A stretch of DNA of 64,000 nt, taken from assembly GCF_046119375.1 (NCBI RefSeq), contig NW_027362767.1, positions 385,392,001 through 385,456,000 on the forward strand, read 5' to 3'. Positions 8,401-62,889 of this stretch are shown in pieces. A program made the position numbers and the translations under genes. The stretch comes from Phyllobates terribilis (lineage: Eukaryota). The notes under the pieces are model-generated. The model saw nothing but the letters and a program-made list of their open reading frames with translations. It made no database searches and was not told where the DNA came from. Numbering within the stretch: the first letter of the stretch is position 1; every line of letters starts with the position of its first letter.

Positions 8401-8416
8401 TGCTCTGTTTTCTTTT

Positions 8417-8467
<51 letters not shown>

Positions 8468-11127: not shown

Positions 11128-11181
<54 letters not shown>

Positions 11182-14916: not shown

Positions 14917-14957
<41 letters not shown>

Positions 14958-16692: not shown

Positions 16693-16755
16693 CTAAAGGA
16701 AAAAAAGGCAAAAATCATCTACTGTTCAGAATGTCAACATTCAGTCCATCTAAAT

Positions 16756-19168
16756 CATACATGTCAAATCTGTCCCACAGGATGGTTTTATTTCGCCTGT
16801 GACACCACAACCACCACCCCTATGTGTGGCCATTATTCTGTACGGAGGACTATGCGGGGCCCATTATTCTGTATGGAGGACTATGCGGGGGCCATTATTC
16901 TGTATGGAGGACTATGCGGGGGCCATTATTCTGTATGGAGGACTATGCGGGGGCCATTATTCTGTATGGAGGACTATGTGGGGCCCATTATTCTGTATGG
17001 AGGACTATGTGGGCCCATTATACTGTATGGAGGATTATGTGGAGCCATTATACTGTATGGAGGACTATGTGGGGCCCATTATTCTGTATGGAGGACTATG
17101 TGGGCCCATTATTCTGTATGGAGGACTATGTGGAGCCATTATACTGTATGGAGGACTATGTGGGACCATTATACTGTATGGAGGACTATGTGGGGCCCAT
17201 TATTCTGTATGGAGGACTATGCGGGGCTCATTATTCTGTATGGAGGACTATGTGGGGGCATTATTCTGTATGGAGGACTATGTGGGGCCCACTATTCTGT
17301 ATGGAGGACAATGTGGGGCCATTATACTGTATGGAGGACTATGCGGGGCCCATTATTCTGTATGGAGGACTATGCGGGGCTCATTATTCTGTATGGAGGA
17401 CTATGCGGGGCCCATTATACTGTATGAAGGACTATGCGGGGCCCATTATACTGTATGAAGGACTATGCGGGGCCCATTATACTGTATGAAGGACTATGCG
17501 GGGCCCATTATACTGTATGAAGGACTATGCGGGGCCCATTATACTGTATGGAGGACTATGCGGGGCCCATTATACTGTATGGAGGACTATGCGGGGCCCA
17601 TTATACTGTATGGAGGACTATGCGGGGCCCATTATACTGTATGGAGGACTATGCGGGGCCCATTATACTGTATGGAGGACTATGCGGGGCCCATTATACT
17701 GTATGGAGGACTATGCGGGGCCCATTATACTGTATGGAGGACTATGCGGGGCCCATTATACTGTATGGAGGACTATGCGGGGCCCATTATACTGTATGGA
17801 GGACTATGCGGGGCCCATTATACTGTATGGAGGACTATCCGGGGCCCATTATACTGTATGGAGGACTATGCGGGGCCATTATACTGTATGGAGGACTATG
17901 AGGGGCCATTATACTGTATGGAGGACTATGTGGGGCCCATTATTTTGTATGGAGGACTATGTGTGGCCATTATACTGTATGGAGGACTATGTGGGGCCCA
18001 TTATACTGTATGGAGGACTATGTGGGGCCCATTATACTGTATGGAGGACTATGTGGGGCCCATTATACTGTATGGAGGACTATGTGGGGCCCATTATACT
18101 GTATGGAGGACTATGTGGGGCTCATTATACTGTATGGAGGACTATGTGGGGCCATTATACTGTATGGAGGACTATGTGTGGCCCATTATTCTGTATGGCG
18201 GACTATGTGTGGCCCATTATTCTGTATGGAGGACTATGTGTGGCCCATTATTCTGTATGGAGGACTATGTGGGGTACATTATACTGTATGGAGGACTATG
18301 TGGGGTACATTATACTGTATGGAGGACTATGTGGGGTACATGATACTGTATGGAGGACTATGTGGAGCTCATTATTCTGTATGGAGGACTATGTGGAGCT
18401 CATTATTCTGTATGGAGGACTATGTGGGGCTCATTATTTTGTATGGAGGACTATGTGGGGCTCATTATTTTGTATGGAGGACTATGTGGGGCTCATTATT
18501 TTGTATGGAGGACTATGTGGGGCTCATTATTTTGTATGGAGGACTATGTGGGGCTCATTATTCTGTATGGAGGACTATGTGGGGCTCATTATTCTGTATG
18601 GAGGACTATGTGGGGCTCATTATTCTGTATGGAGGACTATGTGGGGCTCATTATTCTGTATAGAGGTTTATGTGGGGTCCATTATACTGTATGGAGGACT
18701 ATGTGATTCCATTATTCGTCTGTATGGAGGACTATGTGGGGCTCATTATTCTGTATGGAGGACTATGTGGGCTCATTATTCTGTATGGAGGACTATGTGG
18801 GGCTCATTATTCTGTATACAGGACTATGTGGAGCTCATTATTCTGTATAGAGGTTTATGTGGGGTCCATTATACTGTATGGAGGACTATGTGATTCCATT
18901 ATTCGTCTGTATGGAGGACTATGAGGGGCTCATTATACTGTATGGAGGACTATGAAGGGCTCATTATACTGTATGGAGAACTATGTGGCGCTCATTATTC
19001 TGTATGGAGGACTATGTGGGGCCCATTATTCTGTACGGAGGACTATGTGGCGCTCATTATACTGTATGGAGGACTATGTGGCGCTCATTATACTGTATAC
19101 TGGTTGGCCCGTAACTTTATCCAAGTTTTTCATTTTGGCCCTCTGTGTGTTTGAGTTTGACATCCCTG
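16756..19168. mobile_element. Non-autonomous hAT element carrying a minisatellite
   Basis: Imperfect TIRs CATACATGTCAAA / TTTGACATCCCTG; 8-bp TSD atctaaat (16748-16755) vs atctaaag (19169-19176). Confidence 0.72.
16821..19097. repeat. 31-bp minisatellite, ~73 copies
   Basis: Unit ggcccattatactgtatggaggactatgcgg, with blocks of variant units; explains the long spurious ORFs at 16651-19218. Confidence 0.97.
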
Positions 19169-32722: not shown

Positions 32723-33812
32723 TACATATACATAGTTACATAGTTTATAAGGCCGAAAAAAGAGAAGCGTCCATCCAGTTCAGCCTATTTCTTGTGCACT
32801 GCAGCTATTCCGCAGCGTTGATCCAGGGGAAGGCAAAAAAACCATGCGGTATAGGCCAATTTACATCATTGAGGAAAAATTCACTTCCCGACTCCAATCT
32901 GGCAGTCAGATTAAATCCCTGGATTAATTAACTATCACTAAGCATAAGATGTAATTTTATTGTTCTCAAGAAAGGCGTCCAGGCCTCTCTTGAACTCATT
33001 AAGTGAGTTGGACATCACCACTTCCTCTCCCAGAGAGTTCCAGAGTCTCACGGCTCTGACCGTAAAGAATCCCCTTCTATGCTGGTGCAGGAACCTCCTT
33101 TCCTCCAGACGGATAGTGTGCCCCCTCGTCTTTGTCACCATCCTTGGTATAAACAGGTCATGGGAGAGATCTCTGTACTGCCCCCTGATGTATTTATACA
33201 TGTTTATGAGGTCTCCCCTAAGCCTTCTCTTTTCCAACGTAAATAGGCCTAATTTTGACAACCTCTCTGGGTATTCTAGTCCCTCCATTCCCTTTATTAC
33301 CTTAGTCGCCCTCCTTTGTACCCTCTCTAGCTCCAATATGTCTTTCCTGAGCACCGGAGCCCAGAACTGTGCACAATATTCTAAGTGCGGCCTTACCAGC
33401 ACTTTATACAGAGGAAGAACAATGTTCTCATCATATGCCCCTATTCCTCTTCTGATGCATGCCATGACTATTTGCCTTCGCAGCTGCTGCCTGACACTGG
33501 GCACTCCAATTTAATTTACTGTTAACCTAGACGCCCAGGTCCTTCTCCATGTCAGATTTCCCCAACGGTTTCCCATTTAATATGTATGGGTGACTGCTGT
33601 TTTTCTTTCCCATGTGCATGACCTTACATTTATCGGCATTGAACCCCATTTGCCATTTTTTGGCCCAACTCCCCAGTTTATCTAAATCCTCCTGTAGCTG
33701 TGCCCTATCCTCATCTGTATTAACTACTTTACAAAGTTTAGTATCATCTGCAAATATTGCTATTTTACTATGCAACCCTTCCACTAGATCATTAATAAAT
33801 ATATTAAATAAT
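32723..33812 (-). mobile_element. CR1 LINE, 5'-truncated (~1.1 kb), RT C-terminus
   Basis: ORFs 33527..33835 (IAIFADDTKL) and 32938..33504 (LYKVLVRPHLEYCAQFWAP...KRRLRGDL); (CATAGTTA)n tail; abuts a Tc1 TIR remnant at ~32690-32722. Confidence 0.92.
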
Positions 33813-35404
33813 ATAATTGTCATCAAATCTAGCAATGAAGATGTTAAAAATGAGTCTTATTGCATAGTCGCAGCGCCACAAGCTTTACCAGCAGACTGTT
33901 ATCGCGTCTGTTCATAGAAATTGCTCTGCCTATCCAGGTGTGATTGTGTATGGGCAGCAAAGATCTGTCATTCGTTCTTGTGGCCGGGTGCTGATACAAA
34001 TAACGAGGCGTTACTTGTGTTTTGCTTTTTACTTGGTCTCCGTCACGCCTGGTTCTGTACCTGTGTAATGACAAGATCATAGTCTTTGGCTTGGGGTAGT
34101 GTTCAGCACTAGCATTTCCCTCAGGGATCCATGAAATGATTGTAGCACAAAGGACTCGGACACTTATCCTAAATTCTCTTCCTCATTCCTGGCAGATTTT
34201 TGCTACCTTTCCAGTTGTCTTCTGTGCAGCAGTGTAGCCTGGGTGCTTCTGCTCATTACTAGGAGTGTTTTTTTGGGGGGGGGGGGGGCAGATTCTACTC
34301 CAAAATCCACTTGCTCTAGGAACAAGCTTCCTATTGATTTCAATGGGAAAAAACACTAAGGACTCATGCAGACAGGCATGCAAATGTTTAGAGCACGGAC
34401 CAGCCGCGGGTCTCACAACCTGAGTGTGCCGGCCTCCGATATTTCTGTGAGGCTGTCACGCTCTGGTTTGGAGACTCTCGGCCACTCCGTGCTTGGACCG
34501 GGTTGCACGGACATCTGCAGGGTAATGTGTCAATTCTTAAGGTGTCTCTGCTTGAATGACAGCTCCAAATTTGGCTGCTGAAAAAAAAAAAAAAACTCCA
34601 TGCGCAAAAACTATATATATATCTATATATATATATTTAAAAAAAAAAGGGCTTGGTTTTTTAAGTGGATTTTTTTCAGCCAGAAAAATCAACTTAAAAA
34701 GCTCCATGTGAACATACCCTGCGGCAGGAATTTATTATTTATTTTATTATTTTTTTGTGAATTTGCAAAAGAATTCATCCTATACATTGCGTAGTGTGCA
34801 AACCACATGGGACATCTCTCTGCAAATTTAAAATCTGCGCCAAATGTTAATGTTTGCCACTGTAATACCCTGCCTCCAATGCCAAAAAAAGATCTGCAGT
34901 TTATCCTCCTTGTGTGAACATACTACATAGCGTGGATGGCTACATGCCTGGCTGGCATGTAGCACGAAGGCTGTAGGCAAATTGCATGAGGAATGTGGCT
35001 GGGGTAGATGCCAGGGTCCGCTGTTGTTCAGTCTCATGCTGTGGATTGCATGTACTTAGACTGTGCACCTGTCCTCCTAATTAGATGTGCCAACAGACTT
35101 AATGTCTCACCCCATAATGCAGATGTTAGAGACGCTGGATCACCCCTTTAAAAATGGTACTCCCTCCAGAAATATCTCTATCTGCTGCACACAGCTTTTT
35201 TTTTTTGCACATTTTATAGAGGTGTATGATTCAGACGAAGAAAAGTAGATAAATACAGATGACAAGGTACGTAAACCGATAAAATGGAATATAGTATAGA
35301 GCCACTAGACTGGATAAGCAGTGAGAAACTATTTATTATGCTCACAAAAGTAATTAAAAATAAATGCATGGAGCAGTCCACCTCGTGGCAGGTGCTGAAT
35401 GCTT

Positions 35405-35452: not shown

Positions 35453-36078
35453 TGAAACCAAGGATTCTGTTCACATTATCCTTTGTATGTATTAGGTGGC
35501 AAATTCACTCCCATTTCTGTCCAACGTTGTAGTGTGGGGTTTTGTTTTTGCAATTTTACTTGATGGGTGATAAATGTTTGTGCTGGGATATCTCTTTTTT
35601 TGAGATCACAAGTGGGGAAGATTGGTCTAAACTAGTAGTGCAGAAGTGGAGCGGTTTCTTCTTTTATCTTCAAGAGACAGGTGCAAAGTGGAGCAGCCGC
35701 CCGTAGCAACCTGAGCTGCTGCATTTTGCTGGGATGAGTCGACTTCTAGGATCATTTATGCCGGACTGTAAAATACAGGCTCTCTGTTATCAGAGCCAGG
35801 CATACGGCGCCCCCCCTCAGTATTATATGGAGGCCGTCAGTCCTGGCCATAAATAGAGCGCGGCCTCGTGTGTAGTCAGGAGCTATTTCTGTCTCCCAGC
35901 TGCTTCCCGGGGATCTCGGGTAGGGCCGACCAGCTCATCCCACCCGCTGTGTCCTCTCCATCCTGATCTACCAGATCATCCGGCATATTCACATAGGAAG
36001 TTATCAAATCTGACTCCGACAGACTAGACACAATGCTCCGTCCCAGGTAGAGAATAATCTCATGTGATTTCTTTGCAG

Positions 36079-36124
36079 CTGTCAGTCATCCTTAAGGCTC
36101 CCATCATGGTGTCTGTCACGATGG
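36079..36124 (+). CDS. C19orf47: C19orf47 start exon (ATG 36106; MVSVTM)
   Basis: acceptor ctttgcag, donor gtaaga. Confidence 0.92.
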
Positions 36125-39100
36125 GTAAGACATTTACCTTTATAAATCCGGTGCTATCATTTGATTGTTGCATAGATTTGGTTCCCTTTAAATCCATCCA
36201 CTTCTTTTTCAGCCACATCTGAATGGATCAACTTCTTCAAAGAAGCCGGGATCCCTGCCGGGCCGGCTGTCAACTACGCTGTGATGTTTGTGGACAACAG
36301 GTGAGGATGGAAGCTGCCTGCATGGAGGCAAAGGGAGGGAGGAGCTGCTCCTGAAGATCCTACACCATGATCTTTAACCCTTTCCCAACATTGGATGTAA
36401 TATTTCATCCTTTGGGGGGGATAGGGGCAGATGTGGTGAGCCTCTTTCCATAGAGGGAAGGTGCTGACTGTTTTATACAGCCTTTATCCACCTCTAATAG
36501 CAGCAACCAGAGTTTGCTCCAATCGCTACTTATTAAATGCCAGAGTCAATATCTAGATAAATAGTGTGTGGATGCGGTGGTGCCAGTGAAAGCCGCGCTT
36601 CCTCCAGGAAAGGACAGTAGGATAGGTTGATTTGAATCTTTTATTGAAAAGCTACAATACTACGCATTTCTCGGATGTCCTGTCCGCTTCTTCAGGTAAT
36701 AGCTAGTAATCACTATAGTGCAGGTATCCAAATATATATACACAGACATATAAATGTTAACCCATGTGATCAAAGAAAAAGCCCGCCAAGGGATCCCTTG
36801 GCGCCAATAGATAACGGTCTTAAAAAAAAAAAAAAAAAAACTCCTATGAGGTCAAACAATCGATTTGCAATATACATTACCAGTTGCTATTGCCCACAGC
36901 TTATCACACCACCCCTATATCAGCAGTTGGCATACACACCTCATCTGTTTGGTTTCTCCAGGGTTACAGCTCCTGAAGTTTAGCATAGTGGGGCAAAACG
37001 ATAGCCCTTTAGAAAGTAACTTAATTTCATCCTCGCTCAGTTCATAGGATGATAAATTGTAGATGTTGGATTTCTCTGTTGTTGTATTAAAATGTTCTGC
37101 TCCCTTGCCGCTCTTTTTGTATTTTTTTCCCCCTCTGTTACCTCTACGGGATTTTTTCTTTTTCCTAGTCTCTGAAAAAAAGCGATCTAAAGTCTCCTGT
37201 CCTAGGGGTAGAGCCTGGGGTAAAAAATAAGTGTTATACAGTGGGATTTGTCAGTCATCGTGTTATCTACTAATATTTTGTGATGGGTGAGAGTGGCAGT
37301 GCCCTCAGAAGTGGGTACTGTGGCCGTCTCTCTGTTGCCCAATGGAGATGATGTGAGGGACAACGGGGTGCAATGTAGTGAGAAATTTATCAAATCTGTA
37401 ATATCTGAAGGCTCATAATTGGATTAGGATGCTCTTGATATTAAATGTAATTGTTTTTACCATTTATCTAATTCTATGTAATATTCATATATAGCTCCTT
37501 GTGTATTTAATAATCATGCATTTTTATTTCATTTTACTATGACAATAGCAACTGGTAATGTATATTGCAAGTCGATTTTGACCTCATAGGAGTTTTTTTT
37601 TTTTTTAAGACCGTTATCTATTGGCGCCAAGGGATCCCTTGGCGGGCTTTTTCTTTGATCACATGGGTTAACATTTATATGTCTGTGTATATATATTTGG
37701 ATACCTGCACTATAGTGATTACTAGCTATTACCTGAAGAAGCGGACGGGACGTCCGAGAAACGCGTAGTATTGTAGCTTTTCAATAAAAGATTCAAATCA
37801 ACCTATCCTACTGTCCTTTCCTGGAGGAAGCGCGGCTTTCACTGGCACCACCGCATCCACACACTATTTATCTCGTTAAGGATCCCTGGAGATTCGTGTC
37901 GGCTGCAGCACCTCTATTTATATCTTTTCAATGAGTTGTGCATGTCACAACCCTGAATGGTGAACAATTTCATTTATTATCTTCACAATTGGTTATCGGA
38001 TTTCAGCGCTATTTGCTCACCCAATCTTCTTTACTTCTTTCAGTGTCAATATCTGACAGGTGCATTTAAATAGACTGGTTGCCAGCGCATGTTTTGGCTC
38101 CCATCTGCCACTCGGCATCACAGTTTTGGGGTGCCATGGCATCCAAGGGCCTACTGAATTCTCCAGCGCTGCCATCTTGATGCTCCTGTGAAGCCCAGAC
38201 TGAGGCAGGGTTTCATATGAGAACATCATATTCTGATACGCCGAACAAACGTCTGTAGGATCCAGACCACTATGGGGACTAGAAATAAAGGTTAAAAAAC
38301 ATTTGATTCACTCTCAACCACATTCTTTTCCCAGTTTAACCCCTTTCTTGCCTGTGCCGTATTAGTACGGTACAGGCTAGCACCCCTGGATCAGCGCGGG
38401 CTCCAGCGCTGAGCCTGCACTGAAGTGGGCACATGTCAGCTGATTTATACAGCTGATATGTGCCTGCAACAGCCCCGGGTGGAATCGCAATCCACTCGCA
38501 GCTGTTAACCAGTTAAATGCCGCTGTCAATCTGAGGGTCCGTGCCCATGATGCATTTTTGCAGCGTAAACACTTGTAAAACGCTTGGTAATCCTTCTCCC
38601 ATGGTCCCCAATGTAAATCTGCAATTTCAATGCCCATGCTGCGGAAAACCGCAGCGTTTTTGATGTGCGGAAAATTCAGCAGCATGTGCATTATTTGTGC
38701 GTTTACGCATGCGGAATTGCCATCTTCAAAGCATTAGAAAAACGCATGTGAAATTCCGCACATGTTTTTCCCGGCAAGGACATGCGGAAATTTTCCGCTT
38801 CATTTGCATTTGGCATGGCAATCCAGGGTCTGCAACAGACCCCTGTGGTTGTCATGTCCTGATTGCTATGAGCGCCGCCCAGTGGTCGGCGCTCATAGCA
38901 AGTGAGCATTTCTGCTGCATACTGGGGATCTGCTCATTGCCTGTATATAGCAGAGCCGATCAGGCAAGTGCTGCTTCTCGTCTCCTATTGAAGCAAGCAA
39001 AAAAAAAAAAAAAAAAAAGTTTTTAAAAAAATATAGAAGTTTCACACCATTCAAAATAAAATAAAAATTAATCCGATCGGTAAACGGTGTAACGAGAAAA

Positions 39101-42100
39101 AAATTCTAAGCGCCAGAATTACGTTTTTTTGGTCGCCGCAACATTGCAATAACGGGCGATCAAAACATCGTATCTACCCCAAAATGGTATCAATAAAAGC
39201 ATCAGCTCGGCAAGCACAAAATAAGCCCTCACCCAGCACCAAATCCTGAAAAATGGAGACGTTACAGATCTCGGAAAATGACGCCTTTTTTTTTTGTTTG
39301 TTTGTTTTTAGCAAACTTTGTTTTTTTTTCACCGCTTAAATAAAAAAGAACCTATACATTTTTGGGGTCTTTGAACTCGTAATGACCTGGAGAATAATGA
39401 TGGCAGGTCAGTTTTAGCACTCGGTGAATGTGGTAAAAAAAAAACAACTGTGGAATTGCCTTTTTTTTTTTTTGGGCAATTTCACCACACTTGGAATTTT
39501 TTCCCCGTTTTCCAGTACACAATATGATAAAACCAGTGATGTCGTTTAAAAGTACAACTTTTCTCACAAAAAATAAGCCCTCACATGGCCGTATTGTCAG
39601 AAAAATAAAAACTCTATGGCTCCGGGAACAAGGAGAGCAAAAAGCGAAAACACAAAAACTGAAGATCCCAAGGTTGTTAAAGGGTTAAATATAAAGAAAA
39701 AAAATGTCCTGTATCGTTGCGTCTGTAAAATTTTGATCTATCAAAAAAAAAAAAAAAACAATTAGCTCATAAGTTAATTGCCATAAAGAGGAAAAACAAA
39801 GGCAAAACTCTGGAGTTTCTGTTATATAATTGCTGCTTTTTTCTGAAAAAAAAAAAAATGCAATAAATTGTTCATTATATCATTTATACCCCAAATTGAT
39901 ATTGATAAAAAAAACGACAACGCCAGCAAGAAACAAATACTTGAAGATCTCTATGGCCGGAAAGATAAAAAGGTTACTGGTCTCGGGGGAAAATGATGGC
40001 ACTAACCAACTTTAAGTGATGGGGTGGGGGGGGGCTAGTGTGGTGTCCCTGTAATCGTACCGACATGGAGAATCGAGCTGTCCCGTCATTTTCACCACAC
40101 AATGAACGATGTGAAAAAGAAAACGCAAAACAATGGTGAAACTTCGGTTTTGATTTTTTTTTTTTTAAGCTTCTTAATCACACTTTTATTTTATGTATTT
40201 TTTTTCTCCGTACGTTGTATGATAAATTGTAAGAGGTCATTAAAAACCAAAAACAAACGAAGTGCCTCATCTGTCTATGTTGACATGGCTCTTGGAAGGG
40301 AAAAAAAAAATGTATGAAAAGCACAAAAATGAAAATTGAAGGGGTTAAGTAGCATCAGGGTTTCTTTTGCGAGGTCCGTCATCTCTGCTAGAAAATTACT
40401 GTACAGCAAGAATGCATCTCTGCATGTGTTTTATTAGCCCTTATGTATCTGGATTAGCAATTGCCATGTGTGCACAGAGGCTCGCCTACACTGATGTTAA
40501 ATGTGCATCATGCAAAGTGACGTGGCATAGAAATGTGTAAAGGTGCACATTGTATATGGGACAAAGTGACTGATATATCATACGTCATTTATTACTTAAT
40601 TTAACTGCAAGGTCACCGCTACGTGACATTTGTCCATTTTATTTGGAGCGTGACTCATCAGGCGTTGCATGACGGAAATCATCCTGGAGCACAAACGCGG
40701 AGTCCTGTTACTTGTTCCATCCACTCTCAGCCGAGGGTTGAGTTCTTGGGTTTGATCCCCGGCATTGGTGATCACATACTCGCCCTGTTCCTGGATGTAT
40801 TAATGCCATAAAGATGTTTTTGTGCTTTTGGTTTTTTTTCTCCCCTTTCTTCCAAGAGACATCATTTTTCTTTACCATAAAACATTACAAAAAGCAGGGA
40901 AAAAAATCCAGCTTCGGTGAAAAGAAAAAAAAATTCTTCCATTATTTTTGGGATTTCATGCGTCAGTGTGCCGGAAAAAATGATCTGAAACTTCATTATC
41001 GGTTCGATTATGGCAACATCAAACTTTCAGTTTTCGCTTTTCCTTATATTATTGTTTTTTTAAGAATTAGGAACTTAAAAAAATAAATCTACTAATCTTT
41101 GCCCACGACCCTCGTCTGGCCAGTACTTGATTGTGACTGTTGCATTAGCTGCAAGAGGGACTAAGGTGGTCATATGCCCGTTCCTGCTAGAAAAGGGAGT
41201 ATGGAGAGACCACAAGGGATCTGGGCATTGTTAGAGGTGGACAGGTGGGCCTCGCTAAGTGTGTTGTTTTTTTTCTGATTTTTATACCATTTTTGTGTGT
41301 GTATGTGTGTGTGTGTGTATATATAGATAGATAGATAGATAGTAAGAACTTTAACATAGTGGTATCATTTTGACAGGCTGCTTCTAATGTTGTTTTTTTT
41401 TCTTCCAGGATCCAGAAATCTATGCTGATGGATCTCAATAAAGAGATTATTAATGAACTGGGCATAACGGCAGTGGGGGATGTTATTGCCATCCTGAAGC
41501 ATGCCAAAGTTGTCCACCGACAGGTAAGGAGACTCTTATATGGAGGTTTAGCTGTAACTTGTTAGGAGAAAGATCATAGGATATAAAACAATCGTGTACA
41601 ACACCATCCCAAAGATACTTCTCATTACTTCAGTCCTCACAACTAAAGGTTACAATATAGTAAAACAATTAAAGGGGTTGTCCACTAGTTTTACATGCCT
41701 TAGGATAGGCCATCAATGTCTGATTGGCCGGGATCTGACAATCGCACGCCCCCCCCCCCGCCGATCAGCTGTTATCAGTGCTGGCGGCCGCCAGCCGGAA
41801 GTACTCGCTTGCTGAGCTGCTCCGTCTATTCCTGGTGGCCGCCGCAGGGTACTACACATCCACCTTCTATTGATTTGAATAGTAGATGGAGATGCAGTAC
41901 CAAGCCTCAGCCAGTACAAGTAGACAGCCAGCTCGGCAAGTGAGTACTTCCGTCCGGCAGCCGACACCTATATCAGCTGATCGGGGGGCCGGGTGTCGGT
42001 CCCCGGCCGATCAGACTTGATGACCTATCCTAAGGATAGAGTAGTGGACAACCTCTTTAAATCTTCCTCCCTCCTAACATGTCTGCTAGTTTAAACATAA

Positions 42101-45100
42101 AACAAAATTGTATTCTCCATAAAAACAATTCTGGTGCTTCTTTTCTTATAACTCCATAATGTGCTATCCTTCGGTTATTCCTTCTTGAAATGTACAAATA
42201 AATTGTAGCTGGGTGTGACAAGATGGTGGTGATGCCCCGATAGGGTCGACCATGGTGCAGTCAGTGCTTGTAATGTCACACCGACTAAGGACATTCTTCT
42301 GGGGGAATAGTAACACTCTATTTGTTTCATTTCCAGGAGGAATAAGAGAGGAAACGTACAATGCACATAAAGGTCTATCTAAGCTTGAGTCTGCAGACTG
42401 TTACCCACTGTACCCACCATTGATCTGTGGACTACGGCACTGCCCCCAGCCTAATCCATATCCTAAGTCAGCTGTGCCAGGCAGAAAGTCTTCACTGCCG
42501 TCACTTATTTCTCTCACTGCAGAAAAATGTAATTAAATTTAAGCCTGTGAAATGACGTGGTCTGATTGCGCTTCCACAATTCTGTCCCCATCAGGATATA
42601 TGTAAAGCTTTGACGGACTTGTCGAGTGGAACAAGTATGCAGAACGAGCTCAGGAGAAACGCCAACAGCCGTGAGTACAGCCCAGTCAAGAGGAATCTCA
42701 TCAGAAAAAGACCGGGCTTTAAATCAGATTTTTATGTTAAATATATATTTATATTTTTTTCCACATCACTATTAAAAAAAAAAAAAAATCTTGTAAATTT
42801 TCCCACAGGCCACACGGCCGTATACCAGGCTCCTACTTACTGTCATTTACATGGACACTGTGTGCCCCAGATGGAAAACAAAAAGTTTCCTCAAAACCCC
42901 CTCAGATATATGACAGAATTAAATGCATCCAACCTCATAATAAGGGAAGGTGAGAAAAACTGAGCAGAAGACTGAAAATAAATAAGGATAAAGTTTTATT
43001 ACATAAATGGCAATAACTGTACAACTAAAGTGAGGAAGAAATACGGCTAAGAACAAATAAAAGGAAGATGGAATTACCCTTAGATAAGAGGCGAAAAAGA
43101 CAAAAAAAAACACAATTTATGCTCCAGGACACAGGAATAGTGGCATTAGGTGACCAAAGACCAATATATAAGGTCTAGTGATGAGCGAACGTGCTCTGCG
43201 GTACTCGCCCGAGCATCATGGTGCTCGTCAAGTATTTCCGGGTTGCTCGAGCGGGAACTCGGGTCCCCTCCCTGCATGTTTGGCGCTCTTTACAGAGCCA
43301 ATGAACATGCAGGGATTGCCTGCTATGCACTGTAATGCCGTAGCCATGTTGGTTGTGGGCATTACAGTGATTGGCTGGACGCACAGCGTCATCAGGTGTA
43401 TATTAGACCTGGCGCCGCCATGCTCGTCACAGTCACTCCGGATCAGACGGTGTAGGGAGAGGTGCTGCTGTGTCAGGGAGAGATTTGCTTGCGTATTAGG
43501 TAGTGTAGGGAGAAAAACCGTACATTACACATATCCATCTTTACCAACAGTCCTTTTGAGGACTAACTAATCCATCTGCAGAGATATCAGGCAGGCAGTG
43601 TATATAGGCAGGCAGGGTATATAGCAGACTGCAGTGCATATAGCACAAGAGGCTGCATTCCAGTTCTGCCTTCTGCTGCTGTTACATATTTGTATACAAA
43701 GGCCTAGGTCTCAGGGGCCAGGAATATTTTTTTTTTTCATCTTAATCCTCATTATTTGCTTAAAAAGCAATCCAGAAAACACGTTTTTTCTGCGCCATTA
43801 CCTTGTTGGCACTGCAGAATACAGCCAGGTCCTTTCCATATTACAGCGCTAAAAATGCATTTATTTAAAACTGTTTTCTCAGTCACATGCATCACATATA
43901 CGTTTTCAGAAAATACTGCCATTTCTGGCCTCCATTAAAAAAATTTTCAGTGTGTCAGTGAAGCAATTCACACCAGATTGCTGTTCAAAATAGTTACCTA
44001 CAGGTCAGGTATTTAAAACTGTTTTCTCCTTCACACGGATCACATATAAATTCGCTCCAAACTCAATCATTTGTGGTGAGCGTGGAAGATACTGTCTTCC
44101 ATTTAAAATGGGCAAGGCACGTGGCAAAGGACAGGGAACTGGACGTGATGGTACATGCAGAGGCCGAGGACAAGGCCGTGGGCAAGCTGAAATTGTGCCA
44201 CAACAAACACCCACCTTTTCCCGCCTGACCTTCCTGTCCCAATTTCCCACTATTGAACCCAGAGCAGTGTCAAAAGGTTGTTGGTTGGATAGCGGATAAT
44301 GCTTCCAGTCACTTAGCCACCACCACCACCCTGTCTTCCACACGGTCAAGTCTCTGTAGCCGTGAGTCTGGACCCGCATATTCCTCACCCTGATCCTCCT
44401 TCCTCCCACCATGCCGAGTACCCAGAGACAACTGATCCCTCACTTGGACACTCTGAAGAGCTGTTCACTTTTCCATTTATAGATTCGGTCCACTTGAAGG
44501 GGGGCAAGAGGAGAGCGCGTGCAGCGATGCCCAAATATTTGAGCAGCCACGGTCACACGAAGGCGACGGTGGGAAAGTGTCACAAGAGGTGGACGATGAT
44601 GAGACACAATTGCCAGAAAGTCAGGAGGAGGACCAGGGTGCGGAAGTGGAAGACGAGGTGGTGGATGATATAGTAACTGACCCAGCCTGGCAGGAGGACA
44701 GGGGGAGGCAGGCAGAGCACCCCAACAGGCAGGAAGAAGCAGTGTGGTGGCCGCAGACAGAAGGCAGGCAACCGTTCCCCGTAACACCAACACGAAGGAA
44801 GTTGCCAGTACAACTGTTAGGTCTTCCCGAGTCTGGTTGTTTTTTAAAGACTCTGCCGATAACCCCAAAAAGGCCATTTGCACCACCTGCCAGGCCAGCA
44901 TCAGCAGGGGTGGCAAAACGACCAGCTTGACCACCACCAGCAAGATAAGGCACATGGCAGCAAAGCACCCGACTTTGTGGGCCGAACCCCAAGGTCCAGG
45001 AACAGTGTCTGCGGGTGGCACCATTGCTTCTTCCGCTGTTGTGCATGCAAGCCAATCCCCTGTCCATGGTGCATGCGAAGATGCCTCCTGCCCTGCACCT

Positions 45101-48100
45101 GTCGTTGCACACTCTCAAGTAGCAGCATCAGGAAGCCCGTCCATGTCCTTGTCCCAGCGCATTGTTCAGTTGTCCATACCTCAGTCCTTGGAACGCAAGC
45201 GCAAATATGCAGCCAACGCCCCACAGGCCGCACTACTAAATTCTCACATTTCACGACTGCTTGCGCTCAAAATGTTGACTTTTATGCTCATGGAGACGGA
45301 AGCATTCCGCAACCTGATGGCGGCGGCCGTCCCTTGGTACTCGGTCCCCAGCCGCCACTATTTCTCCTGGTGTGCCGTCCGTGCATTACACAAGCACATG
45401 TCTCAAAACATTAGCCGTGCTCTCAACAATTGTTACCGGTAAAGGCCACCTAACCATGGACAAGTGCTTGTGGGCAGGGAAGGTACATCTCGCGGACGGA
45501 ACATTGGGTTAACATAGTGGAAGCCGGGACCCAGTCGGACCTTGGGACGGAACACGTCCTCCCGACGCCAATGATTGCGGGACCTAGGTCATTCAGGGTT
45601 GCCCCCACGGTCTACAGCTCCTGCACCTCAGCCTCCATCTCCGAAATGACCACATCAGTCACAAGCTGGAAGCACTGCCTCGGCTAAGCGGCAACAGGCT
45701 GTGCTGAAGCTAATATGCTTAGGTGAAAAACCACACAATGCTGAAGAGTTGTGGACTGCTCTGAAAGAGCAGGCAGATCTGTGGCTCTCACCGCTGAACC
45801 TACAGCCAGGCATGGTCGTGTGTGACAATGGCCGGAACCTGGTGGCTACTGAGGTGAGGCAAGCTCACAAACGTACCATGCCTGGCCCATGTGCTTAACC
45901 TCGTGGTTCAGCGGTTTCTCAAATCCTACCCGGAGCTGCCGGATCTGCTTGTTAAAGTACGCCGCCTTTGTGCCCATTTTAGAAAGTCAGCTACAGCTTC
46001 CGCCGCCCTTGCAGTGTTCAGCAGCATTTGCAGCTTCCGGCTCACAGACTGGTGTGTGATGTCCCCACACGTTGGAACTCTACACTGCAGATGTTAGGAA
46101 AGATTTGTGAGCAGAAGAGGGCAGTTGTTGAGTACCAGCATCAACAAGGCCGTCGCTATTCAGTTCAGACTCCACACATAAGACCTCAGGAGTGTACATG
46201 GATGTCAGACATATGTACCATCCTCCAAAACTTTCAGGACTCCACCAAGATGGTGAGCGGCGATGACGCCATAATTAGTGTCACCATCCCGTTTCTCTGT
46301 CTTCTGAAATGCTCTCTGCTCACAATCAAAGAGGATGCATTGCAGGCAGAGCACGATGAGATGGAGCAAGGAACCATACAGGGTGATTACACACAGCCCA
46401 GCCTCATCTCATCCCAACGTGGATTGGGTGACAATGAGGAAGAGGAGGAGAAGGAAGGACAGGAGCTAGTTTCATGCGCTATAGACGGTACTACCTGCAC
46501 AGCTGTCATACCATCTGTTCAGCGTGGATGGCCAGAGGACAGAGAAGGAGGAGGAGAGCATGGTCAGTCATCCTCTTGGTGAGGACACGGAAGTCTTGCC
46601 TGTTAGTAGTCTGGCACGCATGGCCAAGTTTGTTACGCTGCCTTTACCATGACCCTCGTGTTCTCAAAATTTTGGGTGACAGTCATTACTGGTTGGTGAC
46701 ACTTCTAGACCCACGCTACAAGGAGAACTTTATATCTCTTATTCCTGAGGTGGACTGGTTTACAAAAAATGGCTGTACCAGAAGGCCCTTGTTGCGGAAC
46801 TATTAAAAAAATTCCCATCTGAAAATGCTGGCGGCAGAGGGCACACTTCGTTGGACATCCAAGAAGTACAGGCGAGAGAGACACAACTTCAATCCAGCAG
46901 AGGCAGGGGAACACTGTCAAAGTTCTGGGAGAGTTTTCTCAGACCCTCCCATCGGACAGGCCCTAAGGCGCGGGGTACTCACAAGGAGTGCAAAGTTTGG
47001 GAAGATGCTGAGAGTACCTTGCCGACCGTACCAACGTCCTCCGTGATTCCGCTGTGCCTTATAATTATTGGGTATCCAAGCTGGACACTTGGAATGAACT
47101 CGCTCTGTACGCCTTGGAGGTCCTGGCCTGCCCTGCCGCCAACGTTTTATCAGAGCGGGTTTTTAGTGTCGCTGGTGGAATTATAACTGATAACCGCATC
47201 CACCTGTCAACTGAAAATGCTGACAGGCTGACTCTTATAAAAATGAACACGGGCTGGATTGGGCCAGACTTCTCAACACCACCGAATGATAGCAGCATAA
47301 CATAAACTCCAATCCAGTGTCTTTTCTTGGGAGGTGTATTCCCATGAATCTTTTCATACCCACACATGGGTATACGCTTCCTGATTTTGGCTATTTGCTC
47401 TTGTCCTCCTCCTTCTCATCCTCCACCACATCACTAGGGTGACCGTGGTCCGTGATGCAACACCCACCTAATTTTTTTTAAAGGGTGTTTATGATGCCCT
47501 TAAAAAAAATGACAGCCAGAGTAGATTCGGTTTCCCTCTATGCCAGCCCTTTCACCGAGCTAAAGAATATGGCTGTGGTGAAATACAACTCCCACTGAGA
47601 AGCTGTTTCAGATTGAAAAACATTGTGCCCACCAGAGGATTTGATTCTGAGGGCTCACCTTTCTCACCCGCTCAAGAGCCCCATAGCAGCTGCAAAGTTA
47701 GCGCTATCATGAACTCTCCTGAGGTAGAAGCCAGGGCCCACCCGAGGATTCTCTGGTGGGACCGTCCCAACCCTGCCAAGAAGCAGTCCTGGCTAAGAAA
47801 AGTGTGTAGAAAGGTTCCCGGACACTCTATGGCTGCTTTTTTTACTGAGGAGGAAACCCACGCAAACACGGGGAGAACATACAAAATCCTTGCAGATGTT
47901 GTCCTTGCTGGGATTTGAACCCAGGATCCCAGTGCTGCAAAGCAACAGTGCTAACCACTGATCCAATGTGCTGCCGTTCACCCTCTAATATCTAACAGGC
48001 TGGAGAAACTTGCATCTACTGCCACTCTATCTTCAGCTCCTTTGTGAGAAAATGTATTTGGGCTGCCACTCAGTCTACCAAATAAAATTCCTGAGAAGGA

Positions 48101-51100
48101 AATTGAGGAAGGCTTCGCTACTGGTACTGGGGGCAGTGCTAATACAATGGCGTCGTACCATAGTTTACTGGAAATATTACAGGCTGGTAGGAGGCAAGCA
48201 GATTCCCACAGAAAAGTACCAGCAGTAATGTTCAGGGACCCGTGCTTGTAGAAGACGGAGACAACACCCGGAGAAATAGTGACGGCTGGGGACCAAGTAT
48301 GGACACGAGGCATGTGGTTGTGAAAAGCTTCCGCCTCCACGAGCCTAAAAGGCCACATTTCAAGTGCAAGCAGCTGTCAAAAATTTGGCAGTATAGTATT
48401 GCAGCCTTTTGGCTGCATATTTGCGCTTGCATTCCAAGGAATGGGGTAGGGACAACTGAACTCTGCAGTGGGACAAGGACATGGACGGTGATTGTGGCAA
48501 GTCTGCAATGACAGGTGCATGGCGGGAGACATCTTCGCATGCGCCAAGGATCACTTATGATGGACACACTTTTAGGCAGTGACCTGGGAGTCAGAGATGC
48601 TTCCAGAGGTCTTCCCCATGCTGTTTCCATTTCTTTTCAGCACGGTATGGATGTGTCTGATGTGTCACACATCACATGGCCAGATAAGGTTGTAAAATGT
48701 TAAAATGAAATTTCCTGTTGAATGCATTTGTCTTGGTTGAAAGCAATGCAAAAGTGGAAAAACACATCAAAAATGCTACGTGTGAACATAGCCCAAGGTG
48801 TGGAGGAGCATTTTTGTTTTTGGTTATTTATTTTGCCTTGTATACAAGTCATTACCCTGGAAAGGATGTTCGTTAACATATTTCCCTGGAAAATCCATTT
48901 TGGTTTCGTTTTTGTGTGTTTTATTGTGAGTCTGTAAAAGTGGCTTAATACGTCTGACAATGTTGTTCACAGCAGTGATCTGGGAGTCAGAAATGCTTCC
49001 CGGGGTCTTTCCCATGCTGTTCCCATGTCATTTGAGCACTGTTCCCATCGATTTGGGCAATTTCTAGGCCCTCTGCAGACCGCCTGGGGGAGCTGCCTGA
49101 CAAATGCTCGAGTTTCCCATAGACTTACATTGGGCTCATTGCTCGGGTCGAGCACTCGAGTATTCCAATTTGCTCGACCCCAGCAACGAGTACCCGAGCA
49201 TTTTAGTGCTCGCTCATCACTAATCAGGTCTGATCGTGTATTGTGTGATGCAAAGAAATAAATGTAGTAGAATCGATATGAATAGAATCATGGCCCATAT
49301 ACTGATCAAAACATATGCATAAAGGTATAAAAGCGTTCATTAGTATGGAAAAAGTAGTATGGCAAAGTGCTTAAAGTAGAAGCCTGTGTATGACAGGACA
49401 TAAAATAACCAATGGAGCAGCTGCACAAAAGGTAACGCTAGTGTAATAGGCAGTCATACTATTATACAGTGAAAAGAATAGCTGTGCAAAATGTAATATG
49501 CAAGTGCAGTGTCACAATGCTGTTATAATGCATATAAAAAGCCCTCAATATTCGTAGTAGCCACAAAATCCATTAAATATGGATGGTCTTCATGACTATA
49601 CATAAAGTTTAGTAGAGGATGATACCTTGAGACATGATGTATAGTCAAAGTGTTGACATAAAGGGGGGGCGCTTGATTGCCCTGACGCGTGTTTCACCGC
49701 ACTGGGCTTCATCAGAAGGCATGGCTAGCATAAAACATAGGTACTATTTAAATGGCTGGGGTTAATGAATGAATCAATCGGCACCTTCGCCACATAATGC
49801 TCTGCCCAGCTATGACGTGGCCTTGCGCGGCCTGCATGATCTATGTATAGTCATGAAGACCATCCGTATTTAATGGATTTTGTGGCTACTACGAATATTG
49901 ATGACTTTTTCTCACTGTATAATAGTATGACTGCCTATTACACTAGTGTTACCTTTTGTGCAGCTGCTCCATTGGTTATTTTATGTCCTGTCATACACAG
50001 GCTTCTACTTTAAGCATTTTTCCATACTAAAAAAACGCTTTTATACCTCTCTGCTTATGTTTAGATCAGTATATGAGCCTTGATGCTGTTCGTATCTGTT
50101 CTGCTACATTTATTTCTTAGCATCACACAATACAGAATTTACTGCAGTGAATGCTAAATATAAATAAAATAATATATAGTTACACACATAATTGTTGTTT
50201 TGCATCAGACCTTATATACTGGTCTTTGGTCATCAATTGCCACCATCAATGTGCCCTGGAGCATAAATTGTGGGGTGTTTTTTTTTTTTTTTTTTGTCTT
50301 TTTCGCCTCCTATCTTAGGGTAGTTCCATCTTCCCTTTATATGTTCTTAGCCACATTTCTTCCTCACTTTAATTGTACAGTAATTATTATTGATGTAATA
50401 ATACTTTATTTATTTTCAGTCTTCTGCTCTGATTTTTCTCACCTTCCCCTATTATGAGGTTTGATGCAATTAACCCATTATCTACCAATGTCCTTTTTTT
50501 GGGACGCCTAATTTTTTGCTTCTAGCAAGTTACATTTTCTAATTAGGTCAAAAAAAAAAAAACGAAAATTGCTAATTTTGGCAAGTAATGGGTTAACTAT
50601 GTGCCACAGGTCTGCTCTCACAATAGCTATAGGTTTGGGATAATTCAGGTTTTGTCTTGGTCAATCTGTCGCTGACTATTTTAATCTTAATGCACGTACA
50701 CTCCCTCGGAATATAAAGACTGTCGCTCTGTCAATATTAGTAATATGATTTCTTTTTAGCTGCCACAAGGATGATTGCTAACAGCCTCAGGCGGGATTCT
50801 CCCCCGTCCACCCCTGTCCGCAGGCCGGAGACAAGTACATCCAATATCTCTGTGACCGTGTCCAATAAAGTGGCTCTGAAGAAGTCCCTAGCAGGTAGCC
50901 CTTATATTTGTATTCTCTGCTTCTAGCTAGGAAAGACTTCTTTTTTTTTTTTTTTCCCCTGATATTTTTCTGTTTCCTTCTCCTTTTGACTGCAAGACCC
51001 TACTTAAACGGCTGTCCCAACATTGTAAATTATTCCCTATCCATCAAATAGGCAATAATGTGCTGATTTGTGGGGATCTGACCACGGAGACCCCCAGGAG

Positions 51101-55089: not shown

Positions 55090-55992
55090 GTATTAAACAG
55101 TCCTCCACATCATGCTGTTCACATTTTGACATGAGACCAAGATGACACCTAACAATTGATCAGCAGTACTTGGCATTGCGAGGCTTCAGTTAGGATGTTC
55201 TCGGACAGAATTGGCCACTGAGCTGGGAGAGTCACAGTCATCAGCTGGGTGCAACAGCGATACAGAGAGACTGGAAGAGTCACAGAGAAGGGGACGTCCT
55301 TTGGCCACATCCAACACTGATGACAGCTTCATTGTGAACAATGCCCTTCAGAAGCAGATGATGAATCCACAGAACTCCAGGCACTTGTAAGGGAGGTGAG
55401 AGGCACCCAACGTCACGTCAGACCACTCGAAACCGTTTACATCAGCATGGTCTGCGTGCTAGACGACCTGCAAGGGTAGCAGACAACACCACCAGGCTCA
55501 GGCGTCATCTACGCTGGACGAGGGACCAGTGGCCTCAGTGCTGTTCACTGATGAAAGTCTATTCACACTGAGCAGAAATGATGGCCGCCAACGATGTTAG
55601 TGACATGAAGGGGAGAGCTATGCATCAGCCACTATTGTCATCAGACGAGCCTTTGGTGGTGGTAGAGTGTGGGCAGGTGTGTCTAGTCACTACAGAATGT
55701 GACTGGTGCAGTGACAAGCCCTTACTACTGAATAACATCATTACTCCAGTCATTGTGTTCCTGCATGAACAACACAGGCCTAATCTCATCTTCATGGAGG
55801 ACAATGCTCCAGCTCATCGAGGTCGCATCATTAGGGAACTTCTGCTGGAGACTGAGGAACCTCAAATAGAGCGGCCTGCACTTTCTCCAGACCTGAATCC
55901 CATAGAAAACCTATGGAATCAGCTGAGTCGCTGTGTAGAGGCTCGTAACTCTGTACCCCAGAACCTCAAAGACCTGAGGGCCACCCTTCAAG

Positions 55993-56429
55993 AAGAGCGG
56001 GACGCCGTGCCTGAGCACAAAGAGAGCGGGACGCCGTGCCTCAGCTCAAGGAGAGCGGGACGCCGTTCCTCAGCTCAAGGAGAGCGGGGACGCCGTGCCT
56101 CAGCTCAAGGAGAGCGGGGACGCCGTGCCTCAGCTCAAGGAGAGCGGGGACGCCGTGCCTCAGCTCAAGGAGAGCGGGGACGCCGTGCCTCAGCTCAAGG
56201 AGAGCGGCGACGCCGTGCCTCAGCTCAAGGAGAGCGGGGACGCCGTGCCTCAGCACAAGGAGAGCGGGGACGCCGTGCCTCAGCACAAGGAGAGCGGGGA
56301 CGCCGTGCCTCAGCACAAGGAGAGCGGGGACGCCGTGCCTCAGCACAAGGAGAGCGGGGACGCCGTGCCTCAGCACATGGAGAGCGGGACGCCGTGCCTC
56401 AGCACATGGAGAGCGGGACGCCGTGCCTC
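55993..56429 (+). repeat. 30-bp minisatellite (~14 copies) inside the transposase 3' end
   Basis: Unit cagctcaaggagagcggggacgccgtgcct. Confidence 0.95.
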
Positions 56430-58329
56430 AGCAGACAATAACTCTACTTGTGGACAGCAGGAGACGTCGTTGTCAGCTGTAATTGATGCTCAAGGCCACA
56501 TGACAAGTTATTGAGACAGTGACATTTTTAGTTGGGGTATATCCATTACTGTTGTTGGCTTGTGTTTCAATAAATTGTTTGAGATGAGGAAATCACCATT
56601 GCTGCTTCTACTGAAATGCCCGACTGTCATTATAAAATATCACTGTAGCAGGAACTTTTTACGTTTTCCATAAATTTCACTTGAAATCCAAGTATCCCAA
56701 ACTTTTTGTGAGTAGTATATGTGATCTGTTACTAATGCTGTGTGTGTACAGGGCTGTGGAGATTAGAGGAAACGCTCGAGTCTATAAAGGATCACTTCTT
56801 TTATTTGGGGCTAACTCTCCTCTCCGGCCATATTACTGCTTTATTAACGGCTTTGCGCTCTAAATGGTTAAACATGGCGCGATTTATATTACTGCTTCAT
56901 AGCAACACTGTGTCCCCCAAAAGTGATGGGAAAACCCTGATCTCTTAGAGATCTGACGTTTTGCTATAGGGAAAATGTGGGGAAAAAAAGCAAAAAAATA
57001 TTCACGCTGCCGTAGGGTGGCAGCGGGACCAGGGCAGTCTTCACCTAAGCGCCCGGAATCATGGGCACCTCTTGCATTTATTAGGCCCATCATGGTGCGG
57101 TGCACATCATGACATTGCATGAGGCGCCTGGGATGCCGGCCAGAAGATACAGAGTACAGACATAAAACTGCCCCGGTCTGGCTGCCGTAGAGGACCGGAC
57201 CAGCGCATTGTGAATCGGTACACATCTGATCGCGCTAGAGTTGATAGCCGCGTGCTCGCTTGCTACTTTGTTTCCTATAGAGAACTATTATTAAAATTGT
57301 GGTTTTATGATTTTATTCCTACTTTGTAGCCATATCCTAAAGCTGGCCGCACATATTGGATTAATAGTTGGTGCAGGATCCAGTCTTTCGGCCCCGGTAG
57401 ATGGCATCCGCGGCTCTTCTTTTGATTAATCGGCACGGCGTGACGTCGCATGTACGTAATACCGCAACAATAGCGTCGCACCAGGTTGGCTAATCAAAAG
57501 AGGATTCATCTGTCGACCACAGATTATCGTCATGGCCGGTGGACCGGGGTCACATCCACTCTGGTTCTAATGAGCTGAGCTGCAGTACCTGGAAATAACC
57601 ACTAGGCCATGTATGGCGCTGTGCTGTTCCTGCCCTGCACCCTGGTTAGATCTGATAGCTGCTGGCGCTCATTGGGAGGAGGTGCCCGGGGTCAGACCTC
57701 CCCCACTGATAGGTCATCAATATAGACATGGTGTATTTAAAGGAAAGGAAATCGCAGGAGAAAAAAAGTGTTTTTGTGGTTTTTTTTTGTTCTTTTCAGC
57801 CTCGAAAAAGAAATGTATACATTATATGTATTCCAAAACATTGATAATGAAAAAAGATCTAGCTTTCATTGAGATTTGTGCTCACATCCCAGTCCTGTAG
57901 CTGTACAGGCCATGCCCCTACATGACTGTAGGGTTTTTGTTCTGAACCCCAGAGATTCTGGTAAAGGACCTGAAACGGGAACCGTATTACATTTTTTTAA
58001 AATTGTCTCTTAAAAATACATTTTAGCCCCTGTAAAAGCCTTAAAAGTGGTCTAGGGTTACTGTGTGCGAGAGATATATATCAAATTATATGAATCAGTT
58101 TGACCTTGGATCTTCCCGTTACTGCCCCCTACTGACCCCATTTATCTCTTTACAGGGGTGGCATAATAAAAAGTCAGTGCTACACGATATGGACACACAT
58201 TTTAAATTCAGGTTTTGACTTCAGTCCCATTGCCCCCTCCATTGTATAACATCCACTCCCCCTACCCCCGGTATATAACATGTGACAGAACGGCCGGTGG
58301 TGCAGAGCTCTGATACCAGCGCGGTCCTG

Positions 58330-60366: not shown

Positions 60367-61808
60367 CAGGGGTCTCAAACTCGGCTGGGTATATGGGCCG
60401 CATGCGGAAAAAAAATTAATTTGGGGGGCTGCATTCTTTGCAGGACAAAGTGACATTTTTAGTGATACCATTTTTTTTTCTATACACCTTTTGAACATTT
60501 TTGCTGTTTTATTTTTATAGCTTGGGTCGTTACGGATGTGGCGATAATAAACGTGCACTTTTTTGGTTTACTTTATTTTATATATGAAGCAGCATTTTTA
60601 GTGGCAAAATATATTTTCATGCTTTATTTTGACGTTTTTCTGCCAAAATCTTGTAGTAATGTGCCCACCCTGGTCTACATCTTGTAATGTCCCCCATCTT
60701 TGTCCCCATCTTGTCGTAATATTCCATTCTGGTCCCCATCTTGTTGTAATGTCTCCCATCCTGGGCCCAATATTGTCGTAATGTCACATACCGGTCCCCA
60801 TATTGTAGATATGTCCTCATCTTGTAGTAATGCCCAATCCTGGTCCCCATCTTGTTGTAATGTCCCCATCTTCTAGGAATGTCCCCATCCTGGTCCCCCT
60901 CTTCTAGTAATGTCCCCAGCCTGGTCCCCATGTTTTAGGACTGTCCCCAGCCTGGTCCCCATGTTTTAGGACTGTCCCCAGCCTGGTCCCCATGTTTTAG
61001 GACTGTCCCCAGCCTGGTCCCCATGTTTTAGGACTGTCCCCAGCCTGGTCCCCATATTTTAGGACTGTCCCCAGCCTGGTCCCCATCTTTTAGGACTGTC
61101 CCCAGCCTGGTCCCCATCTTCTAGGAATGTCCCCATCCTGGTCCCCCTCTTGTAGTAATGTCCCCATCCTGGTCCCCATGTTTTAGGACTGTCCCCAGCC
61201 TGGTCCCCATGTTTTAGGACTGTCCCCAGCCTGGTCCCCATGTTTTAGGACTGTCCCCAGCCTGGTCCCCATGTTTTAGGACTGTCCCCAGCCTGGTCCC
61301 CATGTTTTAGGACTGTCCCCAGCCTGGTCCCCATCTTTTAGGACTGTCCCCAGCCTGGTCCCCATCTTTTAGGACTGTCCCCAGCCTGGTCCCCATCTTG
61401 GAGGACTGTCCCTTGTGCCGTTCTACACATAAAAGAGAAAAAAAAAAAAAGATTCTTCTCACCTGTCCTCCGTTCCCTCTGCGTCCTTTCTGCACCTGTG
61501 GCCCGCAGGCACCATAGACCCCAATCGTGGCCCGGTCCAGGAGCTGCCGGCAGCTGCGCTTCAGTTCAGTGTATTGCTGCGCAGAGACCGGCTCTCTGCA
61601 CAGCAATACCAGTGCCAGCCGCCGGCCTATCAGAGGCCAGCAGCTGACATCTGCGCGTGTCAGTGACGTCATACGCCGCTGCGTTGGGACGCAGATGTCA
61701 GCTGCTGGCCTCTGATAGACCCCAATCGTGGACCGGGCCACGATTGGGGTCTATGGTTCCTGCGGGCCACATGAAGCAGCCTGAAGGGCCGCGTGTTTGA
61801 GACCCCTG
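60367..61808. mobile_element. Non-autonomous hAT element carrying a minisatellite and nested hairpins
   Basis: Perfect TIR CAGGGGTCTCAAAC / GTTTGAGACCCCTG; 8-bp TSD gaataacc / gaatagcc. Confidence 0.9.
60650..61411. repeat. 31-bp minisatellite, ~24 copies
   Basis: Unit tgtccccagcctggtccccatgttttaggac; the left third is degenerate (tgtccccatcctggtccccatcttgtagtaa). Confidence 0.93.
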
Positions 61809-62889
61809 GAATAGCCAGTGGGACGTTCAGCAGACGCCATCTATTAGATATTTTACTATCTTTGGAGAGTCCTGTGCCTTGATACAGTATTAAATTAATT
61901 AAATCAGATAAAATAAAAAAAATTGTTTGAGATTTTTTATCTGATTTCTTTAGTCTATTATGACATTTTATATGCTATTAAAATGTATTTTCCATATGCA
62001 ATGACCTATTTTACATAATTAAAGCACAGATCTGTAAAACTGACTGTACATTAAGTATAAGTAATTATACAGTCTCACCAGAAGGGGGTGCACTATATGT
62101 TCGTTGTTGGCCATTAGCACATACATATCTCCTCTTCTAACTTTGTGGACTTTGCCAAACTTCTAGCAGAGCAGCCTGGTATCTTGAAAAAGCTGCAGGC
62201 CACGAGAAAAAGCTCGCTGCAAGTATATATTGCTCGCACTGGCTTTAATAGAAGCTGTGTATGCAGTGAGTGCCATCTTGTGGCAGCTTCAGGCGGTCAA
62301 AACATTTTTTTTTACATCTAAAGTGACTTCACAGTGAGGAACTGAGAAATTATATGTATGTCAATACTTATGGGGGATTAATATCTGCTATTTATTTGCC
62401 ACAAGAATTTTGCTGTTTGCCTAACTTTGAGCTCAGCTTACTGCCCTTTTTCTCCTGCAAACATATGTGCGCTCAACCAACCTGAGTGTGCATGTGTATA
62501 GAGGGTTGGGAAGAATAGCTCACTTCAGACTATGACAACCATTTCTGCAAGTGTGACAAGAGGAAGTGCAGCCATATTGACCGTCCCCTAATTAGCTGCT
62601 CAGAAACTGATGATTAGTTGTCATTTGCTCAGCACGTTCGATCCGTAAAAAGTGACAAATTACAGAAAAAAATAATTGAAGGTGACAATTAACATGGCGC
62701 CTGGTATTAGTACTGCAAAAATACTGATATCTATGTAACCGAAAGAATCTGATGATCTGACTTTGGCCACTGCTCCCCTAAACTGCATTACCAGATGTAG
62801 CCATTGAAGAGGAGGGGCGCTGTTTCTGGGGGGGGGGGGGAGTTTATTTTCTAATTTCAGTCAGCTCTTTCATAATGTTTGATTGATCC

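Follow-up and report, generated by a model that had tools for sequence, protein, structure and literature searches.

Insertions of EN+ Penelope-like elements (PLEs) have been described as inverted copies that lack their 5' part and carry a tail on one side only (PMC8557442) and as head-to-head pairs bounded by target-site duplications (TSDs) of 8-10 bp (PMC3846280). The minimal hammerhead ribozymes (min-HHRs) of these elements occur as dual motifs on opposite strands, 100-700 bp apart, and in the available sections of PMC4209133 the G10.1-C11.1 pair is called highly conserved, PLE hammerheads have low activity in vitro, and single minimal motifs give no cleavage as monomers. For Poseidon PAc of Anolis carolinensis, a PLE of a different clade, the protein has been found to cut and extend both DNA strands and to start copying at two internal sites, and the PLE ribozyme tested depended on the element's protein for cleavage (PMC11167929).

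We analysed a 64-kb stretch of DNA (the window) in which positions 36555-38044 very probably represent a single head-to-head PLE insertion of Neptune type, with its own pseudo-LTR (pLTR) hammerhead on each arm and with masking of the ribozyme as a passive by-product of the layout. As far as the available text of PMC8557442 and PMC3846280 goes, the insertion resembles the EN+ units described there in its head-to-head arms, one-armed tail, TSD and strong 5' truncation, but its tail measures 171 nt against 30-40 bp in print, and its spacer differs in being a rearranged ORF and 3' UTR fragment. The layout is already in print and the locus, one of many dead PLE insertions, is itself of little weight. 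Of wider interest are two testable departures from the textbook element, a fixed A at hammerhead position 11.1 and a two-frame ORF with a slippery heptamer, and a set of copies that start at the ribozyme cut site, which could serve as a genomic handle on PLE hammerhead cleavage in vivo.

Table 1 Features of the PLE insertion and the surrounding host gene (window coordinates)
Feature	Position	Strand	Remark
Host exon 5' of the intron	36213..36300	+	SAM_4 positions about 8-36
Intron holding the PLE insertion	36301-41408	+	GT..AG, spliced
Left TSD, 10 bp	36545..36554		Identical to 38045-38054
Inverted 5'-truncated copy of the element end (pLTR), tailless	36555..36892	-	
Minimal type I hammerhead, antisense to host	36650..36704	-	Decayed
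Junction filler, short 3' non-coding piece, 94 nt	36898..36991	+	Matches L032, L033, L041, L051
Broken PLE coding fragment, ORF1/ORF2 overlap (basic block and start of RT polyprotein)	36988..37418	-	
Slippery-type heptamer TTTTTTA in ORF1/ORF2 overlap	37221..37227	-	Putative frameshift site
5'-truncated 3' segment (3' non-coding region, pLTR and tail)	37421..38044	+	
TATA-like run	37688..37696	+	~30 nt upstream of the main copy 5'-end cluster at 37712-37726
Minimal type I hammerhead, sense to host	37724..37778	+	Core intact, G10.1 opposite A11.1
One-sided tail, 171 nt, single arm only	37874..38044	+	
Right TSD, 10 bp	38045..38054		Identical to 36545-36554
Host exon 3' of the intron	41409..41523	+	Remainder of SAM_4

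The host gene lies on the + strand and has exons matching the Pfam families SAM_4 and DUF5577 within the 64-kb window; from this architecture we take it to be C19orf47. An earlier note on this DNA, written from the sequence alone, had correctly placed the palindrome in an intron of this gene. Contigs joined the two exons of Table 1 at a depth of 208-500 in 4/4 sequencing runs that are RNA by guess, consist of assembled contigs only and all come from one study; intronic contigs of at least 139 nt reached a depth of 2-10 in the same runs, and the window stretch was not found in runs on record as RNA. Three short matches to the ribozyme itself (35-51 nt, depth 3-29) and one further match (depth 6) derive from other family members. 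In one run (X2), two 151-nt pieces match the spacer and inner right arm at ≥99%, so the sample probably has the insertion, yet it probably makes spliced mRNA. Upstream of the first coding exon (window 35932-36123) the RNA-like contigs differ at their start, one running on from 35932 and two joining from another exon at 36078.

Alignment of the two arms, 36555-36892 and 37543-37873, gave exactly the bounds of the earlier note. Over 331 columns they differ by four substitutions and two small indels, and no inverted repeat in the window is longer; their divergence of 1.2% falls at the low end of the 0.5-8.5% found over 11 arm pairs. The left bound proposed for the element stands, but an end at 37873 was ruled out, since the sequence of the right arm extends as far as 38044 in other copies, and the TSD lies beyond that point. 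A 10-bp duplication at zero offset flanks 36555-38044 on both sides, which identifies it as one insertion of 1490 bp made of four pieces: an inverted arm (-), a 3' non-coding piece (+), an ORF fragment (-) and a 3' segment (+). The last is colinear with the 3' end of the near-full-length copies at family loci L033 and L032, and the filler matches sequence that lies behind the endonuclease in the four copies listed in Table 1. The ORF fragment (~430 nt) has DNA matches at 40 places in the genome and shares 63% identity, over 62 aa, with the ORF2 (821 codons) of a young sister element, at an E of 3e-20. Nine paralogues of the left flank were compared for an empty site.

The PLE origin and inverted pLTR proposed earlier were borne out. 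In L032 and L033, RT and endonuclease remnants precede the 3' segment, on the strand that carries the ribozyme. The parent element has an RT, a CX4CX2C linker and a GIY-YIG-type end. RVT_1 matched the sister ORF2 with an E of 9e-7 and 29.2 bits, just below the Pfam cut-off of 29.6; Pfam gave no GIY-YIG match in this ORF, and the GIY-YIG-type endonuclease was recognised by eye from motifs. A CX2-5CxxC linker between RT and EN is present in L032 and in the ORF2 of L072/L073. According to PMC8557442 this linker is common to Neptune and Nematis, and our putative Neptune-type assignment is one by motif and host group. Within L032, a prostanoid receptor exon (8391-9344, - strand) adjoins another two-arm family copy; the receptor is presumably of the thromboxane type.

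The young sister family, with 408 candidates at first look, has intact frames, copies that are 99-100% identical and inverted arms of up to 4.5 kb (L072, L073, L084, L086, L185-L214). Its intact copies carry two overlapping frames, 562 and 821 codons stop to stop (L073:5542-9536; also L072 and L086), whereas the Neptune clade is given a single ORF in the available text of PMC8557442. The start of the RT frame was read from five sister copies in L072, L073 and L086. TTTTTTA lies at the ORF1/ORF2 overlap in 21/22 aligned copies, a count to be read with a search pattern that itself favours the heptamer. The arrangement suggests that ribosomes may pass from ORF1 into the RT-endonuclease frame by a -1 frameshift. 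No conserved structure emerged downstream of the heptamer, and a literature search on Neptune frameshifting found no paper; for some type of PLE, a frameshift with a pseudoknot is named in the legend to Fig. 1 of PMC8557442. A short ORF leaving the arm in L033 was considered as the real start and rejected as a chance fusion at the truncation point. A 34-bp tandem array lies in the 3' non-coding region of the element (L033:7793-8231; L039; L040) and, between the arms of a single insertion, has grown to many kilobases.

The wider family was examined at 35 sites from a genome of 10.6 Gb, probably amphibian by its repeats and size, 32 from a first genome search and three from an exact motif-pattern search, with 3-25 kb of DNA per site. 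An inverted partner of the 3' segment was present at 19/35 sites, a count that excludes more distant partners and ORF-only partners. The ribozyme was found at 31/35 and occupied both arms at seven, the window included. TSDs of 8-15 bp flank 10 of the 11 two-arm loci tested (slack up to 8 nt), which indicates that the two-arm layout arises at insertion. The arms of the young sister family, 99.2-100% identical in L072, L073, L084 and L086 and 98.4% in L083, likewise point to an inversion made at insertion. At other two-arm sites, too, the tail is present on one arm only.

Motif inspection agreed with the earlier note that the ribozyme copy sense to the host keeps its core and its palindromic ACGCGT stem III. 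In this copy C3 is at 37733, G12 at 37758 and the predicted cut after A37767; a bulged A follows A9 and stem II has five pairs. The motif claimed for the left arm is present as well, but in decayed form, three CpG transitions having removed the stem III palindrome (ATGCGT) and broken one stem II pair. Both window copies have the core C3-U4-G5-A6-N7-G8-A9, G12-A13-A14, A15.1-U16.1 and H17; core positions are kept in 31-35 of 34-37 family arms, depending on the position, with A at H17 in 39/39. The Rfam comparison that had been proposed as a check returned no match of the motifs to the hammerhead families, either at the gathering score or at E≤10.

Relative to the min-HHR in the available sections of PMC4209133, the motif is alike in its core, the bulge after A9, the short stem I, the palindromic 15.2-16.2 and the occurrence of opposite-strand pairs, but has G10.1 opposite A11.1 in place of G10.1-C11.1. 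The earlier note had described this stem II letter accurately and suggested that it may weaken activity. Local decay was rejected, because A11.1 is a conserved trait of the subfamily, present in 34/35 aligned arms and in 9/9 exact pattern matches from a genome search with position 11.1 left free; the genome holds at least nine exact matches to the intact motif, the sense copy among them. Three of these belong to a subfamily that is only 73-78% identical over the segment and identical over the 34-nt motif, so the motif appears to have been conserved during transposition. On sequence criteria, then, the A11.1 hammerhead is a variant of the minimal type I motif, and at least two subfamilies have the A fixed. 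In the young sister family position 11.1 is the usual C, and 10.2-11.2 is a compensatory U-A. Stem II covariation at this pair, C-G here and U-A in sister families, amounts to a single compensatory change.

The 5' ends of family copies bear on whether the variant is active. We placed 41 5' ends of arms, taken from 28 loci; 15 are in the cluster at 37712-37726, the likely transcription start, about 30 nt below a TATA-like run (Table 1) that is the likely element promoter. Six copy ends from four loci lie at 37764-37769, within 4 nt of the predicted cut, and in the copies at L099-L102 the 5' ends cluster both at the cut and at the likely start about 45-55 nt upstream. Counting ends in 37727-37873, 6/19 are at the cut (binomial p 7e-4); counted by locus the figure is 4/14 (p 0.009, or 0.075 if two tries per locus are allowed), in each case for a 9-nt bin that was set after the data were seen, though centred on the predicted site. 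Excluded before counting were arms starting at the truncation point of the window copy (37400-37441) or interrupted by later insertions, as well as L182 and loci of other subfamilies. In the young family, 30 loci gave 10 internal ends, at -97, -90, -51, -51, -51, -48, -44, -2, +46 and +91 from the cut.

These copy ends hint that the A11.1 variant may cut the element's own RNA, so the ribozyme is perhaps not dead. An RT stall at the stem III palindrome would yield similar ends, and the cluster is therefore a hint, not proof. For Poseidon PAc, RNA ends at the ribozyme cut were not seen according to the available text of PMC11167929; here, some genomic copies begin at that point.

The earlier note had gone further and proposed that the upstream antisense arm captures the sense ribozyme and so protects the host pre-mRNA. 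The capture itself is supported by the predicted fold of 36540-37900, in which 54/55 ribozyme bases pair with the left arm at a mean probability of 0.98 and the duplex has -614 kcal/mol, compared with -13.6 kcal/mol for the monomeric hammerhead; physical masking by the upstream arm is thus plausible. That masking was selected, the ribozyme otherwise cutting the host pre-mRNA and the insertion surviving because the upstream arm blocks the cut, is very unlikely. This idea draws on the stability of the duplex, in which three of the four arm differences still allow G-U wobble pairs, on the copy ends that hint at activity in vivo, and on the intact state of the sense copy beside a decayed antisense copy, which, together with the low divergence of the arms, counts against a passive reading. 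Two-arm copies, however, are common wherever they have landed, and their arm order is forced. The antisense arm is transcribed first, as had been pointed out, but head-to-head geometry guarantees an upstream antisense arm in every two-arm copy, on either strand, so the order is no evidence of selection.

Nor does the sense ribozyme look like a strong hazard. The window contains one sense and one antisense motif only, so that a dimer partner is absent, and even with the left arm removed the hammerhead fold would be rare (predicted pairing ≤0.002 for stem I and 0.03-0.23 for stem II). Given the inactivity of monomers in PMC4209133 and the dependence on protein in PMC11167929, as far as their available sections go, the sense ribozyme in the host pre-mRNA is likely inert even when unmasked, since neither a further sense copy nor the element's protein is present. 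Protection of the host pre-mRNA was therefore not upheld: the layout is family-wide, its geometry is forced, the sense ribozyme is single and monomers do not cut. The four arm mutations are too few to separate selected masking from chance or youth.

Given the copy ends at the cut, the ribozyme may still pose some threat to the host transcript. A scenario that we consider unlikely, though less so than selected masking, is that the A11.1 hammerhead is active, that the cut RNA is the template, that the insertion mechanism muzzles the intronic ribozyme, and that two-arm copies outlast lone sense copies. If masking does shape the survival of insertions, PLE insertion geometry would be linked to host tolerance. 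A literature search on antisense masking of a transposon ribozyme returned unrelated reviews only.

The terminal inverted arms and TSD of the insertion would also suit a non-autonomous unit mobilised in one piece, of a MITE-like or retrozyme-like kind, and one other site, L037, has a comparable ORF piece fused to the same 3' segment. Such a unit is more improbable still, as arm length and spacer vary at every site and the full 1.5-kb arrangement has no second copy in sets of 20 and 18 loci. A remobilised composite with a junction common to the window and L037 was rejected, the two junctions differing by about 50 nt. Animal non-LTR retrozymes (bioRxiv 10.64898/2026.07.22.740005) are, in the part of the preprint available, alike in being hammerhead-bearing, pLTR-derived and amphibian, but they consist of tandem non-coding repeats, whereas the window has an inverted single insertion with ORF remnants. 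Here each strand has one motif, and the arrangement typical of non-LTR retrozymes, two or more same-strand ribozymes in tandem non-coding units, is absent. Least probable of all is an exapted source of regulatory dsRNA, yielding siRNAs against the family or controlling editing or splicing of the host gene, for although a 331-bp near-perfect duplex lies in a transcribed intron and the Dicer idea has a precedent in transgenic Drosophila, where Penelope inverted repeats give rise to siRNAs (described in the available text of PMC3681739), the CpG decay looks neutral, the insertion is young and the genome contains many similar hairpins.

The preferred reading, a single head-to-head PLE insertion, can be set out as a sequence of steps. 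Judging by the anatomy and by the portions of PMC11167929 available, the element's enzyme would make cuts about 10 nt apart in the two DNA strands, and RNA would be copied from each side, from two different internal start sites, 37873 and 38044. Copying begun at these different sites would account for the one-sided tail; the two-strand extension and two RT starts described for Poseidon PAc would likewise explain the arm ends and the tail. Template jumps would then join the two truncated copies and leave the scrambled ORF fragment in the middle. The intron is spliced out, and the hairpin would be at most an incidental substrate for ADAR or Dicer.

The window contains further repeats. Other long inverted repeats lie at 8464-8739 / 10862-11137, 49237-50134 and 2800-3180, and are probably ends of DNA transposons or MITEs. 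A broken hAT transposase with zf-BED and dimerisation domains occupies about 44000-47400 (+) in a host-gene intron further downstream, and fragments of a CR1-like RT and a Tc1-like DDE domain are found at 32938-33856 (-) and 55572-56441 (+), respectively. Minisatellite arrays with units of 30-43 bp are located at 14949-15560, 16700-19000, 56000-56450, 60700-61540 and 62770-63800.
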